From NCBI GenBank assembly GCA_949297185.1, contig CASFRM010000006.1:16374-80373 (forward strand): a stretch of DNA of 64,000 bases. The letters run 5' to 3'. Both the position numbers and the translations under genes were made by a program. This DNA comes from an uncultured Pseudomonadota bacterium (lineage in GTDB: Bacteria; Pseudomonadota; Alphaproteobacteria; RF32; CAG-239). The notes beneath the pieces are model-generated. The model saw nothing but the letters and a program-made list of their open reading frames with translations, was not told the DNA's origin and made no database searches. This document shows positions 3,606-36,112 of this stretch, piece by piece. Every line of letters starts with the position of its first letter. The stretch's first letter is position 1.

Positions 3606-5519
3606 ATGAGCAATAAAGTAATAGGAATAGACTTGGGAACCACCAATTCCTGTTTTGCGGTAATGGAAGGCGGCGAAGCAAAAGTTTTGGAAAACTCCGA
3701 AGGTGCCCGCACTACTCCGTCTATGGTAGCATTTACCGACACTGAAAGGTTGGTAGGCTTTCCGGCTAAAAGACAAGCGGTTACTAATCCGGAAAACACC
3801 TTGTTTGCCATTAAAAGACTAATCGGTCGTCGCTATAATTCTCCGGAAGTAGCCAAAGACAAATCTTTGGTGCCGTTTAAGATTATTGAGGGTGACAATG
3901 GTGACGCCTGGGTTGAAGTAAAGGGACAAAAGTATGCTCCGTCACAAATTTCGGCGATTGTACTGCAAAAGATAAAAGAATATGCCGAGAGCTATTTGGG
4001 TGAAAAAATTGAAAAAGCAGTAATTACCGTACCGGCATACTTCAATGACTCGCAAAGACAAGCGACTAAAGACGCCGGAAAAATTGCTGGTTTGGAAGTT
4101 TTGCGTATCATCAACGAGCCGACGGCCGCTGCTTTGGCCTATGGTTTGGATAAAAAGACCAATGGTACTATAGCCGTATACGACCTTGGTGGTGGTACTT
4201 TTGATATTTCTATTTTGGAAATAGGTGACGGTGTATTTGAAGTTAAGTCGACCAATGGTGATACTTTCTTGGGTGGTGAGGACTTCGACCAGAGATTGGT
4301 TAACTACCTGTCTGAAGAATTCAAAAAAGAGACCGGTATTGATTTGAAAAATGACCGTTTAGCTTTGCAAAGATTAAAAGAAGCTGCCGAAAAGGCCAAG
4401 ATTGAATTGTCATCGACCACTCAAACCGAAGTAAACTTGCCGTTTATTACCGCTGACGCTACCGGCCCGAAACACTTGAATATCAAGTTGACCAGAGCAA
4501 AGTTGGAATCTTTGGTTGAAGATTTGATTGATAAGACGGTTGAGCCCTGCAAAAAAGCCATGGCCGATGCCGGTGTTTCGCCTTCTGACATCAGCGAAGT
4601 AATCTTGGTCGGTGGTATGACTCGTATGCCTAAAGTCCAAGAAAAGGTAAAAGAGATTTTCGGCAAAGAGCCGCATAAAGGTGTAAACCCCGATGAAGTA
4701 GTTGCCGTCGGTGCCGCAATCCAAGGCGGTGTCTTGATGGGCGATGTAAAAGATGTGTTGTTGTTGGATGTAACTCCGTTGTCTTTGGGTATCGAAACCT
4801 TAGGCGGCGTGTTCACTCGCTTGATTGACCGCAACACCACTATTCCGACCCGCAAGTCTCAAGTATTTTCAACCGCCGAAGATGGTCAAACCGCAGTTAC
4901 CATCAGAGTATTCCAAGGTGAGCGTGAAATGGCTGCCGATAACAAATTGCTTGGTCAGTTTGATTTGGTAGGAATTCCGCCTGCACCGCGTGGTATGCCG
5001 CAAATTGAAGTAACCTTTGATATTGATGCCAACGGTATTGTAAATGTTTCGGCCAAAGATAAAGCCACCAACAAAGAACAAGCAATCAGAATTCAAGCCA
5101 GCGGTGGTTTGTCTGATGCCGATATAGAAAAGATGGTAAAAGACGCCGAAGCCAATGCCGAGGCCGATAAGAAGAAAAAAGAAGTAGTTGAGGCCAAAAA
5201 CCAAGGTGAAGCTTTGGTTCATTCAACCGAAAAAACCTTAAAAGAACACGGCGACAAGATTTCCGCAGCCGAAAAAGAAGCTATCGAAAAAGAAATTAAT
5301 GCTTTGAAGACAGCTTTGGAAGCCGAAGACTTGGCCGTTATCAAAGAAAAGACCGAAAGCCTAATGCAAGCTTCGATGAAATTGGGCGAAGCAATGTACA
5401 AAGCTCAGGCCGCAGCTCAACAAGCACAAGGTGCAACTCAGGGGGCCGATACCGGTGCTGCCGGAGAGCAACCTAAAGACGACAAAGTTGTTGATGCTGA
5501 CTTTGAAGAAGTTAAATAA
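3606..5519 (+). CDS. dnaK: Molecular chaperone DnaK (Hsp70)
   Basis: 637 aa, unmistakable Hsp70 sequence ([22 protein letters not shown]-type C-terminus). AGAGGG RBS upstream. Confidence 0.98.
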
Positions 5520-5579: not shown

Positions 5580-8500
5580 CTATCTGGCGTTTGCGTTTCC
5601 TTTCAAATTATAAGTGCCGCCATGTGGTTTGTTTGACTTTCCGCGAGGTAGAGGCGTTCTCGATGTATCACGAGCCGCTGTCAACTTTGCATGTTCGGCA
5701 TTATTCTTTCCTATTGACGCAATTTCGGTAAAATGACGCAGTGTCATATCCTTAGTTGCCAGCGGCTTTCCGTCATAAGACAAGTTTGTTTTCCAAGCTG
5801 TCTCTCTGGTAGAATTTATATACTCCATCCCTTTTTTAGTTTCTGCAGAGCCTTTAGAATCATTGAGAGGTTCGGTTGCATAACCAACCTCTTTTTCAAA
5901 AGTATTCCATCTTGTTTCAAGGTATATGCCGAAAGATGCCTCTGCATTTTCTTCTTTCCATTCGTTTTGTACTAAAGATTTGTAACGGATACGCTCAGAT
6001 TCGTTTGGCTTAATACCGTGGACTACTTTATATTCACGATCAAGCATTTCATTTATGGATGAATCTGTATACTCCGGCAAAGCTTTAGCCTCCTGATGCT
6101 CCGGCAAAGCTTTAGCTTCCTGATGCTCAGGTAGAGCCTTTAGTTCTTTCACAGGTTTAGGAGGATTTGGCGGAATAACAGGATCTTCGCGCTCATCTTT
6201 GTTTTTGCGTTTTCCGTTAGCTCCCATAATAACATTCAAAAATTTGCTCTTAGCAGAGGTCCAAACCTTATCAAACGTAACGGTAAACGGAATAAAGCTG
6301 TGTTGTTCGGCTTTAGAGAATTGGTCAAACCTTTCATGATGAGCTTCTTCCGGAATATTAATAATTTCTTTTCCGGCCGCACCACCGGCATAGGTCGTAA
6401 ACACGGTTCCTTTACCACTTTCAGCATGTACCATTTCTCCTGCTTCATTTGCAGTTGCATTACGAGGCAAGACCCCATCATGATGAACCGGCGCGTTATC
6501 AACATGTCCTACTTCATTGTTTGCCGAAACCAGATTATCAAGTTTGGCGATAGTTTCCATAACCTCAGGAGTGAGTTTTTTAGGAATTAAATTACCATTT
6601 TCGTCAGTTATTGCTGCTACAGCTTTAATTTCTTCCGAACTAAAGCCGTATTTGCTACACCATCCTTCACCAAACACTTTGTGGTTTCCGTTTACTTCAA
6701 CCGGAGTATTACTGTTGTCAACATGGTTGAGGTTTGTATCGACCTCGGCATTGACCATCTGAGCTCCGCAATCACCTGCAATCAACAAAGCACGGTGTAC
6801 ATCAACGGCTTGTTCAGGGTGTGAAGCATTCCATTGTTCAATAGTACTCTGAGCCGCATTAACATTATTCTCCAGCAAATCAGGAACATCTTTGGTCCAT
6901 CTTTCCAAAATATCTTGAGCTTTTTCGGTAGCATTATCAAGATATCTGACCTCTGTTTTTGCGGGTTCATCAATTATTTTTACGCCATTTGCATCATCCG
7001 CATTAGTTTCTGAGCGAATAATGCCGTCTTCGGCAAGACTTGCATCATCTCTACCTAACAAATTAACGGCATCTTCTTTAGTAATGGGTTCTTTTAGAAC
7101 TCCGTTTTCATTAAGCTCATCAGGAGTCATGTTTTTATAATCATTTAACTCCTCGCCCGTAACCACGGTTTTGGTATAACTTGCATCATTAGGATCGTAC
7201 TCATCGGCTCTGACTTGTCTGGTTCCGTGTTCTCCCCACAAATCAAGCGATACATTATTCAGATGTTCTGATGCCAAGTTAACTCCGTACGATAATCCCA
7301 TGCCGCTTAATACGGCAGTACCGGTAGAAAGGGATGAGTTTGTGACAGATTTCAAAATAGCCTTACCCCATTTATCTCCGGCTTTTCTATTGTTGTGAAC
7401 TCCTTTGATAACCGATGTTGCAAAACCAAAAGCCATCATACCATAGCGAGCTGCTGCCTGCATACCATGTTCGGCAATTTTACCTCCGAACACAATTGCC
7501 GTGGTTGTTGCCGCGGTCATCAAAATCTCAGGAGATTTTTGCAATAGGAATTTACCAAAGAATTTTAATCCCTTCTCCTTAGATGCTTTCCGCTCTTCAA
7601 TATAGGATCTTGTTAATCTGTAAATAGCTTGAGTAGCATAAACACCGGCATAAATTTGTGAGCCAAGTCCCGGTACTCCCAAAGCCAAACCGGCGGTATT
7701 GCAACCGATTCGCAAAGCTTGGTTAAGAGCTTGGGCTCCCATATTTTTAGCCATCATTTTACCGAAAGTTCTGACAACCTCATAAGATTTGCCGAAACGA
7801 GCAATACAAGTCTTATCAATTTTAGCTATTGGAGCATACATTTTGCTCAAAACCGGAGCAGCACGATTTTTAAGGTGAGCCTTTCCGGCCAAGCGATTCA
7901 AAAAGCTGACATGGTTGTTAACTGTTGCAGCTTGAAAAGCTGCCAACCCTTTATCGGAAATTGGCTCATTACTGTTTAGTGCTTTTCCTATAGCCTCTCT
8001 GCGTTGTTCATCGGTAGCATTTTCCGGCAAATTGGCAAGAGCATCAGTTGATTTTAGAGTATTAATATATGTTCCGGTAACCACTTGCAGTTGATTTTTT
8101 AATTCGTCGGCAAGGGCTTGCTTATCCTTACCATATGCGGCTACAGCTGCATTTCTGACTGCTGTTAATTTAATGGTTTCAATAAATGTTTCTTTTTTCT
8201 TATCAGCATCGGGATTTTCAAAATTCAAGCTCTGAAACCAGGTTCCGGTTTCTGCAAACCAAGTTTCATTTTGCTTTTTATCGTTAACATCGATATTTTT
8301 AGCAATTTCCCAAGCGTCATCAAAAGCCTCTTCAAGCTTTTTGTCATCGCCTTCTTTTACATCGACCAAGCCATTTATTCTGTCATAATTATCAATGGTC
8401 TCGTTCATGCGATTTCTGGCAGCATTAAGCTTATTAGCCAAATCCTGTCTTACATTTTCCGGCAAGCGAGAGAGGTTGTTTTCTATATAATCGAACATCT

Positions 8501-9140
8501 CCATAGCGCCGTCATAAACATCGGCGACATTGCTTCCATCGACAATAATATCGCCTAAAACATAGCCGTTAAGCTTGCTATACATAGCCTCCAAGAGGAC
8601 CTTGCCTTGTGTTTCAAGAGAGGCAAGTTCGTCTTCTTTTCCGTTCTTTCCTTCAAGTCTTTTATCAATATCCTGACTCATCACTACCAACTGATGCGGC
8701 GGCATAACCTCGGCCAAATCTTTAGCCTTTTGTATCAGAGAAATATTAAATTTAGACAATTCCGGAGCATTAAGATTGTCTTTTAATTCTTGAATTTTGT
8801 CTTCTTTTTCTTCAGGGGAAAGGTTGGCAAAGTCCTTTGGAAATTTATCTTCCAAAACATCTTTTAAAGCAGTGATTTCCAGACCTTCGGTCATTTTAAG
8901 GCTATCATATGTCGCTTCCAAAAAAATCGGAGCTGTATCTCCATCAACGCTTCCGTCCAATAACTGTTTCCACTCATCCGAAGTATAGCCTGCAGCAGAA
9001 GATTGAGCCGTTTGCGATTTCAAAGGAGTATTGTTTTTGGGTTTATCCTCTGAGTTGATATTCTCTTTATTTTTAGAAGCAACAGATTGCATCTGATTTC
9101 TTTTTTCATCATCGTCTTCTTCGTTTACTTTAATAGCCAT
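5580..9140 (-). CDS. Large hypothetical protein (1186 aa), candidate secreted effector
   Basis: Long uninterrupted ORF with no recognisable family. No signal peptide and an acidic N-terminus. A central Gly/Ala-rich hydrophobic block is encoded around 7290-7740. Contains a KALPEHQEA tandem repeat and a basic C-terminal tail. Confidence 0.8.
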   Translation of the reverse strand: MAIKVNEEDDDEKRNQMQSVASKNKENINSEDKPKNNTPLKSQTAQSSAAGYTSDEWKQLLDGSVDGDTAPIFLEATYDSLKMTEGLEITALKDVLEDKFPKDFANLSPEEKEDKIQELKDNLNAPELSKFNISLIQKAKDLAEVMPPHQLVVMSQDIDKRLEGKNGKEDELASLETQGKVLLEAMYSKLNGYVLGDIIVDGSNVADVYDGAMEMFDYIENNLSRLPENVRQDLANKLNAARNRMNETIDNYDRINGLVDVKEGDDKKLEEAFDDAWEIAKNIDVNDKKQNETWFAETGTWFQSLNFENPDADKKKETFIETIKLTAVRNAAVAAYGKDKQALADELKNQLQVVTGTYINTLKSTDALANLPENATDEQRREAIGKALNSNEPISDKGLAAFQAATVNNHVSFLNRLAGKAHLKNRAAPVLSKMYAPIAKIDKTCIARFGKSYEVVRTFGKMMAKNMGAQALNQALRIGCNTAGLALGVPGLGSQIYAGVYATQAIYRLTRSYIEERKASKEKGLKFFGKFLLQKSPEILMTAATTTAIVFGGKIAEHGMQAAARYGMMAFGFATSVIKGVHNNRKAGDKWGKAILKSVTNSSLSTGTAVLSGMGLSYGVNLASEHLNNVSLDLWGEHGTRQVRADEYDPNDASYTKTVVTGEELNDYKNMTPDELNENGVLKEPITKEDAVNLLGRDDASLAEDGIIRSETNADDANGVKIIDEPAKTEVRYLDNATEKAQDILERWTKDVPDLLENNVNAAQSTIEQWNASHPEQAVDVHRALLIAGDCGAQMVNAEVDTNLNHVDNSNTPVEVNGNHKVFGEGWCSKYGFSSEEIKAVAAITDENGNLIPKKLTPEVMETIAKLDNLVSANNEVGHVDNAPVHHDGVLPRNATANEAGEMVHAESGKGTVFTTYAGGAAGKEIINIPEEAHHERFDQFSKAEQHSFIPFTVTFDKVWTSAKSKFLNVIMGANGKRKNKDEREDPVIPPNPPKPVKELKALPEHQEAKALPEHQEAKALPEYTDSSINEMLDREYKVVHGIKPNESERIRYKSLVQNEWKEENAEASFGIYLETRWNTFEKEVGYATEPLNDSKGSAETKKGMEYINSTRETAWKTNLSYDGKPLATKDMTLRHFTEIASIGKNNAEHAKLTAARDTSRTPLPRGKSNKPHGGTYNLKGNANAR
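6074..6143. repeat. 27-bp tandem repeat (2 full units plus a partial) inside the 1186-aa ORF
   Basis: Unit ccggcaaagctttagcYtcctgatgct at 6074-6100 and 6101-6127, with a degenerate third unit to ~6143. Encodes KALPEHQEA repeats on the minus strand. Confidence 0.9.
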
Positions 9141-10567: not shown

Positions 10568-11476
10568 ATGCCGTTGGAGAGTGTCAGCAATAAAGTTGAC
10601 GGCGTTGCCGGATGGGATAAAACGGTTGCCGATGTAAACAATATTGATGAAAATTTTGCCAATGCCCGTGACTTAGGTTATGCGCGTTTGAACAACTCGC
10701 GTATATCTGTTATTGCCCAACTGGGTAAATACGACAACAAAGACATGTACATGGTTCAGGTACAGTCCAACGGTAAATTATTTGTAAACCTCCGCACCGG
10801 TAACTCCACCGGAGACGAAAAAGTTTTGGATTTATCCAAATACGACACTACCCTTAACGAGATAAAAGCAGATTTGGAAGCAATGGGTGTCAAGACCGAA
10901 GAAGAGGTTATTGATACTACTCCCAAAACTCCATACGATATTGCCAAAGCCGAAGTTGAAAAAATGAAAGCCGAGAGAGAAGCCGAAAAAGCAGGCTTGC
11001 TTGATGATATTGCTCCGGGAATGACAATAAAGGTTTATATGAAAAAGGGCAATCGCACTATATGTTTGGGAGATTCTACAGCAGATAAAAATTCTGATGA
11101 ATATGCAATTATGAAGTCGATTCTTTCCGGTGAATACAAGGCCAAAAAAGGAATGTATTATATTGAGGTGGGCAGTGCGGAAGAAACTCCGAAAGAAAAT
11201 ATACCCTACATTATGCAAATTAAGCAAGGCGACAAGTACATAAACGACTATTTGGTTACCGAAACAGAGTCTGAAGATAGCAAAAACGAAACCATATCCT
11301 TAACATCATCCACTTCATCTTCGGAATATATTTCCTCGGCCTATGCTGCACAAATACAAGCACAGAAATATGATGCTACGGTAACCATGATGACCAACGC
11401 TTATCAAAATCTGGCCTCAATCAAAAATAAGCAAACCGGAGCCGCCAAGATGTTTTCAACTTTGTTAAATGTATAG
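10568..11476 (+). CDS. Hypothetical protein (302 aa)
   Basis: GGAG RBS 8 nt upstream. Clean ORF followed by a terminator. No family recognised; the C-terminus is Ser/Thr-rich. Confidence 0.6.
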   Translation: MPLESVSNKVDGVAGWDKTVADVNNIDENFANARDLGYARLNNSRISVIAQLGKYDNKDMYMVQVQSNGKLFVNLRTGNSTGDEKVLDLSKYDTTLNEIKADLEAMGVKTEEEVIDTTPKTPYDIAKAEVEKMKAEREAEKAGLLDDIAPGMTIKVYMKKGNRTICLGDSTADKNSDEYAIMKSILSGEYKAKKGMYYIEVGSAEETPKENIPYIMQIKQGDKYINDYLVTETESEDSKNETISLTSSTSSSEYISSAYAAQIQAQKYDATVTMMTNAYQNLASIKNKQTGAAKMFSTLLNV

Positions 11477-11700: not shown

Positions 11701-13431
11701 CTAGAATGTACTCAGTATACTTTGTGCTGATTGAGAGGCAAGAGATAGGGAATTAATTGCTAACTGTTGACGCGTTTGCAAAGTGAGATATTGTGCCGAA
11801 GCCTCGTTCATATCGGCCAAGGTCAAATTATCGGCTCCGGTTTCCAACACATCGGTTAGAGCCTCGGTAAAATTAATACGGGTTTTAATTATTGAATAAT
11901 GATTGCCGAGTTCCTCTTGAAACGAACGGATTGAATTAACCGCTTTGGTTATTTCTTCCAACGACTTTTTAATTGCCGAGGTGTCAAACAAATCCCTAGT
12001 TTCTAACCCCAGCGACATACTATCAGCCAAAACACCGGCAATGCTGTATTTATTAGAACGACTTTCGTTAAAAGTAACTTCTAAATTGCCGCCCTTAAGC
12101 AGATTAATTCCCTGATACGAGCTGTCGTTCAATAAGTTGTCATATTCTTCCAATATTTTTTTGTATTGCTCGGCATAGTTATTTTCTTTAACCTCAAAAG
12201 CTTCTTCCAACTGTTTTTCTAAGGTACTTACAAAATCCGCCGAGTTTTTACTGTCTTCTTTTTTGGTCATAAATTGATCGTAATCGCCATTGGTTATAGT
12301 CGGCACGGTAACAGTTTGCCTAGCTACCCAATGAGACATAGCTACAGCATTTTTATTGGCTAAGTAAAATTCGGTGTTTATACTAACCACACTAGTGGGG
12401 TCTGAAAATTTGATAGCTGCACCAAATTTGGAAATAGCATATATGTATGCTGAAATTGTACAGTCTTTCACAAAATTTATTCCTGCAGCACCACCACCTT
12501 TGGCCTCAAGATTAAAAACTCCAGCAATTGATGATGATGTTATTTGAGCACAATGAGCACCTCCTCCAATAGTTGAAATATTACATTCTCCTACAAAACT
12601 TGAAGCATTTAACCACATTCCACTTCCATTTCCGAAGGTTTTTATATTTGTTGTTCCAGAAAAAACAGAACTAACTACATTTATACCTATTGCAACATAA
12701 CCATTTGTTGTAGCATTTAAATTACCACTAGCATTACTTTTTGACAAGTACACGGCATTTGCTCTGTCACCAGTTGTATTAATATTAATGTTATCAAAAT
12801 TTACCGTTGAATTACTTATGCTAACACAGTTTGAACTGTATACACTTAACGAATTAAGATTAACCGTGATATTTTGCAATGTGCATCCATCTTGCACAGT
12901 AAGCATACTATAAGTTTTGTTGGTATTATCTGTTCTTGTAAAATTCAAGCTGACATCTTGGGTTAGGCCGGCGAGGGTTTTGCCTTTAGTGAGGGTTATG
13001 GTTTCATTATCGGCAAAGGTCAAAGATTGAGTAACCACAATTTTATCAATATTACTGTCAGCAATAGCGGCTTTTAATTCCTCTACTGTTGATACTCTAG
13101 TATAGTCGCTAAAATCATATTTGACATTGCTTGCCGCCTTATTAACTACCGCGGTTGCTTGCTCCAAAAATTCCGCTCCCGAAGTCAAACCTTGGGTTGC
13201 AGCTTCAATAGTTTGGATACCTTGCCCCATCGCATCTAAAAGAGCGGTCAAATCAGCCGCCCGATTGGTCAGAGAGCGCGCTTGGTAATAGCTGGACGCA
13301 TTGTCTATCGCCGAGTTCACTTCCTTTCCCGTCGCTAAAACAAGCTGAGTTTTATCCATTTGTTTGGATATATTTCTCAAACTTAGCAAATTATTGCGCA
13401 TTGAGGCGTTTAAGGTGATGTTGTTATTCAT
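11701..13431 (-). CDS. Flagellin-like protein with a large non-flagellin central domain
   Basis: The N-terminus (ITLNASMRNNLLSLRNISKQMDKTQLVLATGKEVNSAIDNASSYYQARSLTNRAADL) and C-terminus (ADMNEASAQYLTLQTRQQLAINSLSLASQSAQSIL) look like flagellin D0/D1 helices of the alphaproteobacterial flagellin-like (DUF1522-type) group. The middle ~300 aa is rich in N/S/T/G/I/V periodic strands. Confidence 0.72.
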   Translation of the reverse strand: MNNNITLNASMRNNLLSLRNISKQMDKTQLVLATGKEVNSAIDNASSYYQARSLTNRAADLTALLDAMGQGIQTIEAATQGLTSGAEFLEQATAVVNKAASNVKYDFSDYTRVSTVEELKAAIADSNIDKIVVTQSLTFADNETITLTKGKTLAGLTQDVSLNFTRTDNTNKTYSMLTVQDGCTLQNITVNLNSLSVYSSNCVSISNSTVNFDNININTTGDRANAVYLSKSNASGNLNATTNGYVAIGINVVSSVFSGTTNIKTFGNGSGMWLNASSFVGECNISTIGGGAHCAQITSSSIAGVFNLEAKGGGAAGINFVKDCTISAYIYAISKFGAAIKFSDPTSVVSINTEFYLANKNAVAMSHWVARQTVTVPTITNGDYDQFMTKKEDSKNSADFVSTLEKQLEEAFEVKENNYAEQYKKILEEYDNLLNDSSYQGINLLKGGNLEVTFNESRSNKYSIAGVLADSMSLGLETRDLFDTSAIKKSLEEITKAVNSIRSFQEELGNHYSIIKTRINFTEALTDVLETGADNLTLADMNEASAQYLTLQTRQQLAINSLSLASQSAQSILSTF

Positions 13432-13710: not shown

Positions 13711-13796
13711 TGGTTCGAAAACTGCCGGAAAAAAAGTAACAAAAAAACCTCTGTTCAATTTGGAGGCTTTTACAAAAAAATGGCGCGCCCGGCAGG
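13711..13796. repeat. Direct repeat copy 1: 3'-terminal 16 nt of tRNA-Arg plus its downstream terminator/flank
   Basis: The ~86 bp from tggttcgaaaactgccggaaaaaa to ttttacaaaaaaatggcgcgcccggcagg is near-identical to 13967-14053, which overlaps the real tRNA-Arg 3' end. Confidence 0.9.
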
Positions 13797-13966
13797 CTAC
13801 AAGCTACAAAAACACCGTTGCTCCGGTGTTTTTTAGCGCAGAAGGCGAAGTTTATTTATCTTATAAGCGGCGGAGTAATCAGTCGCTTATAAGATTAAGA
13901 AACGAGAGACCGCAGCGAGTTAGCTTTTGACGCTGTTGCGTCAAAGCTTATGAGCCAGATGAACCT
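13797..13966 (+). other. tRNA-linked conserved noncoding element, copy A (candidate miniature integrative element or structured RNA)
   Basis: 170 bp between the two direct repeats and homologous to 32382-32583. The 57-nt core at 13904-13960 (gaccgcagcgagttagcttttgacgc-loop-gcgtcaaagcttatgagccaga) is nearly identical to copy B except in the hairpin loop. Two further hairpins lie upstream of the core. Confidence 0.55.
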
Positions 13967-14053
13967 TGGTTCGAAAACTGCCGGAAAAAAAGGTAACAAA
14001 AAAACCTCCGTTTTACTTGGAGGCTTTTACAAAAAAATGGCGCGCCCGGCAGG
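13967..14053. repeat. Direct repeat copy 2 (native flank plus 3' end of tRNA-Arg)
   Basis: Counterpart of 13711-13796. Includes the tRNA terminator hairpin (gcctcc...ggaggt plus T-run on the minus strand). Confidence 0.9.
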
Positions 14054-14114
14054 ATTCGAACTTACAACCTTCTGATCCGTAGTCAGATGCTCTATCCAAT
14101 TGAGCTACGGGCGC
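14038..14114 (-). tRNA. tRNA-Arg (anticodon ACG)
   Basis: The reverse complement folds as a 77-nt cloverleaf, GCGCCCG-TA-GCTC...GAGC-A-TCTGA-CTACGGA-TCAGA-AGGTT-GTAAG-TTCGAAT-CCTGC-CGGGCGC-G-CCA. CCA is encoded. The T stem has one A:C mismatch. Confidence 0.93.
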
Positions 14115-32333: not shown

Positions 32334-32381
32334 GGGTGTGTAGCTCAGGTGGTCAGTCGCGTTACGTTGACATCGTAGAGG
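32334..32381 (+). pseudogene. Partial, slightly diverged copy of the 5' 46-48 nt of tRNA-Val
   Basis: GGGTGTGTAGCTCAGGTGGTCAGTCGCGTTACGTTGACATCGTAGAGG versus the intact gene at 32584. The D-loop region differs (GGTCAGTCGCG vs GGTTAGAGCG). Homology stops in the variable loop. Confidence 0.8.
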
Positions 32382-32583
32382 CTTGAGGCAGAAAACGGCT
32401 CCGGTGGAGCGGTTTTCAACGAAAGGCGAGAGTTTGTTGGTTTATGAGCCAGCTTTAGCGCCGCGAAATAAACGCTACAAACCGAGTGACCGCAGCGAGT
32501 TAGCTTTTGACGCCCAAGCGTCAGAGCTTACGAGCCAGAACAAGCTCGCTTGCGACCGAATTATTAAGGAATTTTATCTATAT
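32382..32583 (+). other. tRNA-linked conserved noncoding element, copy B
   Basis: Homologous to 13797-13966, with the core at 32484-32540. Same order of hairpins. The tracked ORF 32383-32619 runs into the tRNA and is not conserved in copy A. Confidence 0.55.
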
Positions 32584-32660
32584 GGGTGTGTAGCTCAGGT
32601 GGTTAGAGCGTTACGTTGACATCGTAGAGGTCGCAAGTTCGAGTCTTGCCACTCCCACCA
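32584..32660 (+). tRNA. tRNA-Val (anticodon GAC)
   Basis: 77-nt cloverleaf GGGTGTG-TA-GCTC...GAGC-G-TTACG-TTGACAT-CGTAG-AGGTC-GCAAG-TTCGAGT-CTTGC-CACTCCC-A-CCA. One U:U mismatch at acceptor pair 4:69. Confidence 0.9.
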
Positions 32661-34152: not shown

Positions 34153-34177
34153 TGCAAATATTTAAGTGATACATACA

Positions 34178-34500
34178 GTCATTCTCAATGATGTCTTATT
34201 TTCATGTCATTCTCGGGCGGTGTTTTTTTATTGTCATTCTCGGGCTTGTCCCGAGAATCTCATTAAGGAGTCAAGTTTTGCGAGACCCTCGGAACGAGTC
34301 CGAGGGTGACGATAAAAAAGAAATGTCATTCTCGGGCGGTGTTTTTTTTATGTCATTCTCGGGTGGTGTTTTTTTATTGTCATTCTCGGGCTTGACCCGA
34401 GAATCTAATAAGTTTTAGGCACGGTCATTTTCAGCCTTGTCCCGAGAATCTCATAAGTTTTAAGCCCAATCATTCAAAGACCTTGACCCGAGAACCTAAT
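34178..34500. repeat. Array of short palindromic hairpin repeats upstream of the GIY-YIG gene
   Basis: Unit A is GTCATTCTCGGGCTTGTCCCGAGAATCT, unit B is GACCCTCGGAACGAGTCCGAGGGTGACGA, and half-units are GTCATTCTCGGGCGGTGTTTTTTTAT. At least 8 units are present. Confidence 0.9.
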
Positions 34501-34517
34501 AGATATAAAACAGCAAT

Positions 34518-34805
34518 ATGAAGAACATGTATGTTTACATAATGAGTAATAAGCCGAATGGTACATTATATATTGGTGTAACTAATGATTTATGTCGTCG
34601 AGTTTATGAGCATAAAAATAAACTGATAGAAGGATTTACAAAGCGATACAATCTTAATATTCTGGTCTATTATGAAGTATTTGACAGTGAAATACAGGCC
34701 ATACAACGCGAAAAGAACTTAAAACACTATACACGACAATGGAAACTTAATCTGATAAATAGTATAAATCCCGAGTGGAAAGATTTATATGATTCCATAC
34801 AATAG
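34518..34805 (+). CDS. GIY-YIG nuclease family protein (small UPF0213-type)
   Basis: 95 aa. MYVYIMSNKPNGTLYIGVTNDLCRRVYEHKN...REKNLKHYTRQWKLNLI is the classic GIY-YIG / URI-domain signature. Confidence 0.9.
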   Translation: MKNMYVYIMSNKPNGTLYIGVTNDLCRRVYEHKNKLIEGFTKRYNLNILVYYEVFDSEIQAIQREKNLKHYTRQWKLNLINSINPEWKDLYDSIQ

Positions 34806-34839
34806 GCCAAGCATTTATTGTTACTTTGGTTGTGTTTTT

Positions 34840-35244
34840 TTTATTGTTATTCTCGGGCGGTGTTTTTTTATTGTCATTCTCGGGCTTGACCCGAGAATCT
34901 AATAAGTTTTAGGCACTGTCATTCTCGGGCTTGTCCCGAGAATCCATAATGAATAGACCCTCGGAACAAGTCCGAGGGTGACGATTATGTGGTGTCCGAG
35001 TGTGATGATAAAAAACAAATGTCATTTTCAGCCTTGTCCCGAGAACCTCATAATGAATAGACCCTCGGAACAAGTCCGAGGGTGACGAGAAAAAAGAAAT
35101 GTCATTCTCGGGCTTGTCCCGAGAATCTCATTAAGGAGTCAAGTTTTGCGAGACCCTCGGAACGAGTCCGAGGGTGACGATTATGTGGTGTCCGAGGGTG
35201 ACGATAAAAAAGAAATGTCATTCTCGGGCTTGTCCCGAGAATCT
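34840..35244. repeat. Array of the same hairpin repeats downstream of the GIY-YIG gene
   Basis: At least 10 A/B-type units. The 80-bp block 35101-35180 is identical to 34233-34312. The last hairpin abuts the patatin stop codon. Confidence 0.9.
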
Positions 35245-36112
35245 AATTTTGCTCTAAAAACTTCTTGATTTTCTCAAGGTTGCTTAATGCGTCAAAACGC
35301 CCCAGCTCATACATCTGCTTGACAATATCAAGGTTACGCTCCATCTTGCCGATTTTTATTTTTTTTGACGGTCGCAAAACTAAAGTGTTACCACTCTTTT
35401 CCTCTTTGGCAATATAATCGAGCTCTTGATTATACATAATATGCCTTTGGGCAATAGCTTTGGCAAACAAAGGATATTTACGATATACCAAGTTAGCCAA
35501 CCAACCGTTGTGCGCCGGAGGTTTGCGATAACCGTCCGGTCGGGTCAAAATCACGATATTACGGTTATATCCCATATTTTGAGCGGCCTCAAGCGGGATA
35601 CTGTCGCAAATGCCGCCGTCCAATAATTTTAGCCCGCCCACTTCAACGATTTGCGAAAAAAACGGTAGAGAAGCAGAAGCTCTGAGATAATTGATATTGT
35701 CACCTCTTAATGAAGGACAATGGATATATTCGGCTTTTCCGGTTTCGATATTAGAGCAGACGGCAAAAAATTTACATTTACTGTTTTCAAAAGCATCATG
35801 GTCAAACGGGTCGAGGATATCCGGCAACTCATGATAGCAGAATTCGGTATCAACCACATTTCCGGTTTTGAGCCAATTTTTAAGGCTCATAAATCTGGGG
35901 TCGTTGCCGTATTTAAGGTTATAACGGATTGAACGACCATTTTGTTCGGCCACATAAGTACAGCCATGTATAGCTCCCGCCGACACCCCGAATACGGCAT
36001 CAGCCATGATATTATTTTCAAGCAACACATCCAATACACCGGCGGTATAGATACCGCGTTTAGCCCCGCCTTCCAAAACCAATGCCGTCGTCATAATCAA
36101 TTCATCCTTCAT
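35243..36112 (-). CDS. Patatin-like phospholipase
   Basis: Oxyanion GGAKRG, nucleophile elbow GVSAG and catalytic DGG (LLDGGICD). Confidence 0.85.
   Translation of the reverse strand: MKDELIMTTALVLEGGAKRGIYTAGVLDVLLENNIMADAVFGVSAGAIHGCTYVAEQNGRSIRYNLKYGNDPRFMSLKNWLKTGNVVDTEFCYHELPDILDPFDHDAFENSKCKFFAVCSNIETGKAEYIHCPSLRGDNINYLRASASLPFFSQIVEVGGLKLLDGGICDSIPLEAAQNMGYNRNIVILTRPDGYRKPPAHNGWLANLVYRKYPLFAKAIAQRHIMYNQELDYIAKEEKSGNTLVLRPSKKIKIGKMERNLDIVKQMYELGRFDALSNLEKIKKFLEQN

Follow-up and report, generated by a model that had tools for sequence, protein, structure and literature searches.

The current study describes a family of small structured elements, here called X, that was recognised at both tRNA genes of a 64,000-nucleotide (nt) stretch of DNA from an uncultured alphaproteobacterium (contig CASFRM010000006.1, positions 16,374 to 80,373). 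This stretch is referred to below as the window, and coordinates are positions within it unless another contig is named. Members of the family are non-coding elements of 153–163 nt (approximately 155 nt), and X always lies within the loop of a partial tRNA copy that adjoins an intact gene. The family is marked by its linkage to tRNA genes, by a common structure, by the anatomy of its junctions and by the existence of both occupied and empty alleles. The reading favoured here, to which we give about an even chance, is that X is a non-autonomous mobile element that lands in tRNA-gene loops, is moved in trans and is accompanied by a duplication that preserves the gene. X is an apparently undescribed family of structured elements specific to tRNA-gene loops, since a protein-less element of about 155 nt in such loops, combined with a gene-preserving duplication, was found neither in Rfam nor in the literature searched.

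At the first locus of the window, the intact tRNA-Arg(ACG) gene occupies 14038–14114 on the minus strand (ARAGORN; Rfam tRNA model, 64.9 bits). The first-pass annotation of this DNA had described a repeat at 13711–13796 and 13967–14053, and gapped alignment bore this out, with 82 of 87 positions identical (94.3%). The four mismatches and one indel all lie in or beside the terminator loop. Each copy consists of 16 nt of the tRNA and approximately 70 nt of flank, contains the terminator hairpin of tRNA-Arg and ends with TGGCGCGCCCGGCAGG, the complement of the final 16 nt of the gene. The proximal copy is made up of an inverted piece resembling T-loop and acceptor (13967–13984), a spacer (13985–13997), the terminator (13998–14028) and the final 16 nt of the intact gene (14038–14053), and the distal copy ends in an orphan version of the same 3' 16 nt (13781–13796).

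The two repeat copies are separated by 170 nt (13797–13966) containing three hairpins, as had been proposed. X takes up 163 nt of this insert (13797–13959, + strand), assigned from a covariance-model match at 13835–13959, folding and covariation. The element interrupts the T-loop of a tRNA-Arg(ACG) copy. On the far side only the final 16 nt and the terminator are kept, and on the near side lies the intact gene end with its own terminator, because X loci carry a short tandem duplication.

Beside X at this locus is a palindromic joint, GAACC-TT-GGTTC (13961–13972). Its GAAC is the complement of GTTC in the T-loop, an assignment made by eye only, as GAAC is too short for the list of sequence matches. 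After the joint comes the T-loop-to-acceptor piece in inverted orientation, in which GTTCGAA and CTGCCGG correspond to sense-strand sequence of the gene. The distal copy begins within this inverted piece, which suggests that an older, more distal X formerly stood at the Arg locus and has since been lost (compare the Val-TAC arrays below). The Arg locus is also occupied in a relative (L003/L004) whose flanking lipoprotein is 95% identical. The repeat copies of the window are closer to each other than to their L003 orthologues (89.7% and 81.1%), which indicates gene conversion at Arg and probably ongoing exchange between the repeats at X loci.

The second tRNA gene of the window is tRNA-Val(GAC), where the first-pass annotation had noticed a homologous insert. 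This homologue was confirmed as a 158-nt copy of X at 32382–32539 (+ strand), which scores 123 bits with the covariance model and aligns with the Arg copy. It is preceded by a partial copy (32334–32381, + strand) that has a variant D-arm and corresponds to the 5' 47 nt of the gene, which is what the repeat covers here. X is followed by a T-arm-like hairpin, ACAAG-CTCG-CTTGCGACC (32540–32557, + strand), a 26-nt spacer (32558–32583, + strand) and the intact gene (32584–32660, + strand; ARAGORN and Rfam).

The gene order FGase – tRNA – MurI is conserved at this locus. L036 provides a clean syntenic empty site, and the locus is occupied in L037–L040, L001, L002 and the window. Comparison of L036 with L037 showed that the partial copy has kept both the place of the original gene and the upstream region that belonged to it, and that the intact gene sits downstream of X. 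All occupied loci share the derived D-arm variant in the partial copy, and the Val-GAC copies are therefore most likely one ancient insertion passed on by vertical descent with covarying stems, as judged from these sequences. The orthologues keep their structure down to relatives whose MurI is approximately 75–80% identical. In the window lineage, the T-stem of tRNA-Val has become GCAAG/CTTGC instead of GCAGG/CCTGC, and a parallel change in the hairpin beside X likewise points to ongoing exchange between repeats. A U4:U69 mismatch was also found in the acceptor stem of tRNA-Val(GAC), both in the window and in every relative read, and the 'intact' tRNA-Val of L040 is missing 4 nt of the D-loop (73 nt).

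The family extends well beyond the window. A 22-mer from the X core matched two contigs of alphaproteobacterial metagenome-assembled genomes, both at the tRNA-Val/murI locus. A pattern composed of two conserved single-stranded segments, GACCGCAGCGAGTT..TAYGAGCCAGA, matched 24 metagenome contigs and 2 contigs of a viral collection; several of the 24 are labelled human gut, and the named host assemblies are uncultured Alphaproteobacteria. At every locus with a tRNA call (ARAGORN), the tRNA lay approximately 80–250 nt from the X core. The calls beside public copies were Val(TAC) (12 loci), Pro(TGG) (6) and Lys(CTT) (2). Together with tRNA-Arg(ACG) and tRNA-Val(GAC), which are the only tRNA genes of the window and both carry X, five tRNA species are linked to the element: Arg-ACG, Val-GAC, Val-TAC, Pro-TGG and Lys-CTT. 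The 57-nt core adjoins tRNA genes in every locus with enough flank, and the copies at further tRNA loci mean that the element is not unique to the two loci of the window.

A covariance model built from 15 copies recovered every collected copy (the Arg copy with 90 bits), and with it no further full copy was detected in the window or in the relatives that lack X. X had no match in Rfam 15 at either window locus, even with E up to 10; only the tRNAs passed, and all non-tRNA scores were far under the gathering scores. No blastn match was obtained among 72,556 plasmids and 50,697 phage records. A literature search for tRNA-linked palindromic or IS91-derived miniature elements returned nothing relevant.

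These data also bear on the simplest alternative, in which a simple duplication at the locus, together with hairpins formed by chance, would account for everything and no element as such would exist. The closeness of the Arg repeat copies and their 94% identity would fit such an event, but the same covarying element is present at unrelated loci of many assemblies, and this explanation, which had next to no probability, is thereby refuted.

Behind its left end, X is built from hairpin 1 with A-run and T-run arms, the linker ACGACAGGCGAAG, the long hairpin 2, the near-invariant linker GAGTGACCGCAGCGAGTT, hairpin 3 and the right end TTAYGAGCCAGA. The left end is CTGGAG, with the variants CTACAAG in the Arg copy and CTTGAG in the Val-GAC copy, and the terminal inverted match of X is limited to CTGG/CCAG. 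Hairpin 1 lies approximately 10 nt from the left end and hairpin 3 approximately 12 nt from the right end. In the Arg copy, the left end CTACAAGC is followed by hairpin 1 (13808–13833), linker 1 (13840–13850), hairpin 2 (13850–13903), the conserved linker 2, GAGAGACCGCAGCGAGTT (13904–13921), hairpin 3 (13922–13948) and the right end TATGAGCCAGA (13949–13959).

The predicted fold of 13797–13959 is far more stable than expected by chance, with -61.5 kcal/mol and z -6.2 as RNA, and z -7.0 (+ strand) and -6.2 (- strand) as DNA; none of 200 shuffled controls folded as well. Across 22 distinct copies, standard pairs occupy 95.3% of cells, and 11 of the 24 stem pairs show changes on both sides, i.e. 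covariation. These values were reached by none of 500 shuffles, and slid controls paired at only 28–45%. The distal part of hairpin 3 is wholly different between Val-GAC orthologues of different species (L037, L038 and L040), and the Arg and Val copies of the window have a common one (13922–13948 and 32502–32528). In the L003/L004 relative, hairpin 3 of the Arg copy carries two compensatory pair changes. An apparent tandem G-A/A-G motif on either side of hairpin 3 was seen by eye in the alignment.

The + strand fold was more stable in 12 of 12 representative copies (sums of -651 versus -568 kcal/mol), and in the hairpin pairs G-U cells outnumbered A-C cells by approximately 20 to 4 in our own count. 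The greater stability of the + strand and the preference for G-U over A-C argue that X(+) is the strand selected to fold, either as RNA or as single-stranded DNA.

Such selection would be expected if X were a functional structured RNA made from the + strand, i.e. a small RNA or a cis-acting module of tRNA loci, that spread by rare duplication or gene conversion with no dedicated transposition machinery and was kept by selection. The covarying stems, the invariant single-stranded linkers, the tolerance of G-U on the + strand only and the apparent G-A/A-G motif all agree with this explanation, as does the preservation of structure among the Val-GAC orthologues. At tRNA-Val, moreover, X stands behind the partial copy with the native upstream region, and may be transcribed from the native tRNA promoter. 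However, the promoter scan found none for the Arg, Val-TAC and Lys copies, where X is antisense and downstream; promoter and terminator scans of the X loci were uninformative as a whole. The missing Rfam match also counts against an RNA function, and a species can do without X (L048 versus L044), which is moreover decaying in L052. Furthermore, the conserved flanking nucleotides, the loss of target nucleotides and the head-to-tail arrays are features of DNA that an RNA function leaves unexplained. We consider this alternative unlikely, yet worth keeping in mind.

Several other identities for X were tried and set aside. Three kinds of copy (Val-GAC, Val-TAC and Pro) contain an uninterrupted reading frame (peptide ..SDRSEL..), but stops break it in the Arg and Lys copies, and although 153 nt is divisible by three, the variable hairpins translate into unrelated peptides. 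Readings as a hammerhead, a group II domain V or a T-arm minihelix relied on motifs that vary from copy to copy, and no T-arm hairpin is present in the Arg copy. X is not a classical miniature inverted-repeat transposable element, having neither terminal inverted repeats of at least 10 nt nor a short target-site duplication. A group I intron in a tRNA gene is likewise excluded, as the interrupted copies are partial, no intron model matched and X is only approximately 155 nt long.

The junctions of X follow common rules. The loop entered is the T-loop at Arg, Val-TAC and Lys, the anticodon loop at Pro and the variable loop at Val-GAC. On one side of X the partial copy runs to the gene end and into the flank, and on the other side only about 5–17 nt remain. 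There is no short target-site duplication, and 2–4 target nt are missing. The left flank ends in GG. In four of six locus types, GAAC or CAAG lies within 0–1 nt of the conserved right end GAGCCAGA, with GAAC in the T-loop cases and CAAG at Pro; on the complementary strand, X thus comes after GTTC or CTTG. The tetranucleotide is found within 0–1 nt at three locus types (Arg, Val-TAC and Pro), and Lys L017 has it with one mismatch. At these four, the way X faces with respect to the tRNA can be predicted from the strand that carries the tetranucleotide. In another tRNA-Lys(CTT) locus (L015, 6500–7137), X lies within the T-loop in sense orientation and is followed by a compact 95-nt X-like piece starting with CTACAAGC, the 8-mer of the left end of the window's Arg copy.

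Each X locus carries a short tandem duplication of a tRNA part and 13–70 nt of flank. X is a few nt away from the duplication joint, often with a small inverted tRNA snippet at the joint, and the order is joint, spacer, intact gene. At Val-TAC the joint, GAACTCCC-GA-GGGAGTTCGAACCTC, pairs 8–10 nt of antisense with 15–17 nt of sense sequence and turns back on itself; its central dinucleotide is GA or TC depending on the genome (L018/L023 versus L020), i.e. the hairpin loop is flipped. The Pro joint is the palindrome CCAAAGCAAG|CTTGCTTTGG, and the Arg joint is a weaker one. By eye, the Pro spacer is a copy of the ~13 nt with which the downstream flank begins. The anatomy of joint and spacer points to a tandem duplication at the DNA level with a small inverted piece. 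Reverse transcription primed by a tRNA had also been considered, as the left flank resembles a primer-binding site. At Pro, both sides of the interrupted loop are present and the duplication passes the terminator by ~13 nt, indicating an event at the DNA level, and this candidate was set aside.

A tRNA fragment repeated on both sides of an insert had led the first-pass annotation to offer two readings, a novel tRNA-linked element and an att-like scar. The first has held, with X at five tRNA species; the second has not. According to the latter, X would be what is left of an integrase-mediated island or prophage, or a minimal cis-mobilizable element, with the repeats as attL and attR. The boundary of the tRNA T-loop is a classic sublocation for integrases, and the repeat does start there. 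However, the same ~160-nt element occurs at five tRNA species, and X lies inside the loop of the partial copy, i.e. within the would-be core, so that there is no contiguous att core. Moreover, at Arg the repeat takes in 70 nt outside the tRNA, at Val it consists of the 5' 47 nt of the gene, and tandem arrays of X alone exist. A Pfam scan of the neighbouring genes revealed no integrase near either window locus. The neighbours are housekeeping genes: DnaJ, a protein without a Pfam match, flagellin and a lipoprotein at Arg, and SLT, FGase, MurI and a histidine phosphatase at Val. In the window, open reading frames (ORFs) of 1186 and 302 amino acids (aa) had no Pfam match, and the flagellin has a pectate-lyase-like central domain (5580–9140, 10568–11476 and 11701–13431, respectively).

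Support for an island could also be sought in L042, in which the partial tRNA-Pro copy beyond X is directly adjoined by a prophage that encodes a large serine recombinase. In the same species, however, the prophage stands directly after the intact tRNA-Pro in L046 and L047, which have no X. This prophage (L042, 10185–12310; also L046, L047 and L051) encodes a 568-aa large serine recombinase, a DUF2924 protein, a terminase and a methylase, and joins directly to ...CCCGACCA of tRNA-Pro, which belongs to the partial copy in L042 and to the intact gene in L046 and L047. It is an element separate from X. An island remnant is accordingly regarded as very improbable. The A:C mismatch in the T-stem of tRNA-Arg, previously taken as the mark of a chimeric gene rebuilt by recombination, also lost this meaning. 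The gene of L006 is identical to that of the window over the stretch read, L009 has the same mismatch, and both lack X, so the mismatch is a trait of this tRNA and not a recombination scar.

Alleles without X were found at the Arg, Val-GAC and Pro loci. At Arg, relatives whose lipoprotein is 82% (L006) and 79% (L009) identical have tRNA-Arg with its own terminator and no X. In L009, 'gtcattctgagg' palindromic repeats, similar to those of the cluster near the Val locus described below, fill the region downstream of tRNA-Arg(ACG) (3940–4620), and regions downstream of tRNA genes seem to collect small repeats in this clade. At Pro, variation was seen within one species (RadC 100% identical): L044 and L045 carry X arrays with assembly gaps, L048 has no X through deletion, and L046 and L047 have none. 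A 91% relative, L049, is empty at this locus. In an 86% relative, L052, the left junction is as in the others (TTTGGG|CTGGAGG), the duplication lies on the 5' side as a mirror image, and the right part of X has decayed.

Head-to-tail arrays of X repeat every 153 nt when made of X alone, or every 252 nt when the unit also includes flank and tRNA end. Arrays of the former kind, with three or more copies, occur at Pro, and those of the latter kind at Val-TAC. The distal copies are cut off at different points among genomes, as in L018, L026 and L022 at Val-TAC. Many of the public contigs (L003–L011, L044 and L045) end within a few hundred nt of X loci, scaffolds contain N-gaps within X arrays, and X breaks short-read assemblies.

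An insertion of X into a tRNA loop should inactivate the gene, yet each locus retains an intact copy, and the duplication therefore preserves function. For the favoured non-autonomous element, movement in trans might be due to an HUH-type, IS91-like single-strand transposase or to another site-specific nuclease. The duplication could arise from repair or template switching at a break or nick near the tRNA stem-loop, where template switching would give a direct-inverted-direct duplication that was trimmed later. The target tetranucleotides of IS91 are 5'-CTTG, GTTC or GTCC, beside oriIS (PMC13181058). An HUH-type transposase is favoured among the possible enzymes, as the junction signature of X includes GTTC or CTTG at most loci.

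Alternatively, a composite unit, i.e. X plus the tRNA part in one array period, may rebuild the gene upon insertion, which would explain the apparent decay of arrays from the distal end. Carried further, X might be a 'self-rescuing' tRNA-homing element whose propagating unit is the array period and which rebuilds the cognate gene as it inserts. The unit would then consist of X, joint, spacer and tRNA part up to the cleavage site, new units would join beside the gene while older ones decay distally, and an HUH-type or other nuclease acting in trans would recognise the stem-loops of tRNA genes. This extension is speculative and rather unlikely to be correct in full.

Several points weigh against X as a mobile element moved in this manner. 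No transposase, integrase or partner gene was found in the loci examined. The IS91-family TnpA of a Porphyrobacter plasmid had no tblastn match in approximately 0.4 Mb of loci and the window, a scan of the same sequences for transposase motifs was also negative, and the Porphyrobacter element had no match to the X model; no IS91 transposase was present on pO157. The ancestral Val-GAC site is CCTG, with CTTG only in the window, and Lys L015 violates the orientation rule. Unlike IS91, X loses target nt. The strand selected for pairing is X(+), whose pairing tolerates G-T and avoids A-C, whereas by analogy with IS91 the strand transferred would be the complementary one. In addition, every insertion needs an accompanying duplication, and we know of no transposition mechanism that yields one. 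Finally, the probable vertical descent of the Val-GAC copies with covarying stems is no less compatible with a selected function than with selfish mobility.

A homing-like process is a further possibility, in which a site-specific nuclease cuts both strands of the tRNA loop at staggered positions and repair copies X together with the neighbouring tRNA, the template being either an occupied allele or an ectopic copy reached through microhomology and template switching. Short overhangs that are trimmed back would fit the loss of 2–4 target nt, and template switching induced by a break gives products similar to the inverted snippets and tandem duplications. The flipped central dinucleotide of the Val-TAC joint (GA versus TC) also counts in favour of homing. 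A 95-aa ORF for a GIY-YIG nuclease also lies 1.9 kb from the Val locus within a cluster of palindromic repeats. However, this ORF does not adjoin X at other loci, and nothing ties it to X. Homing of this type is considered improbable, more so than a functional RNA. The cluster itself (34160–35250, with the GIY-YIG ORF at 34518–34805) is dense in palindromic units resembling repetitive extragenic palindromic (REP) sequences, GTCATTCTCGGGCTTGTCCCGAGAATC and ACCCTCGGAACGAGTCCGAGGGTGACGA, in at least 9 copies, and contains 109-nt direct repeats.

If the favoured reading is correct and X does move, a nuclease or transposase that recognises the stem-loops of tRNA genes would have gone unnoticed so far, and essential genes would have a new way of tolerating insertions. 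The self-rescuing version, if true, would describe a transposon that uses essential genes as safe harbours with neither integrase nor intron. X loci are also of practical interest, being associated with breaks in metagenomic assemblies, arrays of variable number within species and partial tRNA copies left behind, and at least one prophage stands directly after such a partial copy left by X. Given its conserved linkers and hypervariable third hairpin, X is also a candidate for an RNA or DNA module that binds protein or acts like a guide.

Small non-autonomous elements are known as a kind; the targeting of X and its linked duplications are not. Among known systems, the rolling-circle elements of the IS91/ISCR (insertion sequence common region; HUH Y2) group and the eukaryotic Helitrons share with X the absence of a target duplication, distinct ends and the lack of long terminal inverted repeats. 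IS91-family elements make no target duplication and carry a single subterminal palindrome at terIS, against one or two at oriIS, their ends of 89 and 82 bp suffice for transposition, and transposition proceeds via a single-stranded circle of one strand (PMC13181058). X likewise has one subterminal palindrome at one end (hairpin 1, near the left) and two at the other (hairpins 2 and 3, toward the right), GTTC or CTTG abuts one specific end at most loci, its size is close to that of the minimal IS91 ends, and head-to-tail arrays are common to both. In contrast to this group, X has no transposase gene and no similarity to the alphaproteobacterial IS91-family element, is confined to tRNA-gene loops, loses 2–4 target nt and has a conserved GG in its other flank. 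Its insertion comes with an obligatory duplication of a tRNA part, and the strand under pairing selection appears to be the opposite of that expected.

The palindrome-associated derivatives of IS200/IS605, and REP sequences and bacterial interspersed mosaic elements (BIMEs), which belong with the HUH Y1 enzymes and the REP-associated tyrosine transposases (RAYTs), resemble X in being small and non-coding with strand-asymmetric, subterminal hairpins, in lacking terminal inverted repeats and target duplications, and in having a short conserved motif beside the left end (GG in X). Unlike these, X has three hairpins with conserved linkers, a conserved right flank and a restriction to tRNA loops. 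No Y1 transposase, RAYT or TnpB was detected among the Pfam-scanned ORFs of the loci examined, and X had no Rfam match to IS605-type guide RNA families (E up to 10).

Integrase-bearing islands and group I introns are well known for landing in tRNA genes. Islands that integrate at tRNA genes, and their cis-mobilizable derivatives, resemble X in the partial tRNA repeat on either side, the preservation of an intact gene and the T-loop and anticodon-loop sublocations. X differs from them in that it has no integrase, is 160 nt long, is the same at different tRNAs and interrupts the would-be att core, and the repeat at its loci takes in non-tRNA flank or the 5' part of the gene.

Rickettsia palindromic elements are 100–150-nt palindromic repeats of Alphaproteobacteria that insert into genes without destroying them, and do so in frame in protein-coding genes, whereas X occurs at tRNA genes only and its reading frame is not conserved. 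The IStrons offer a functional analogy to X only, in that both would be mobile elements whose insertion is harmless to the interrupted gene. An IStron is a group I intron fused to an insertion sequence of IS200/IS605 type, and its insertion does no harm to the gene that it interrupts (PMC4227781). The IStron is made harmless by RNA splicing, whereas X, which has no ribozyme core, is made harmless by duplication of DNA.

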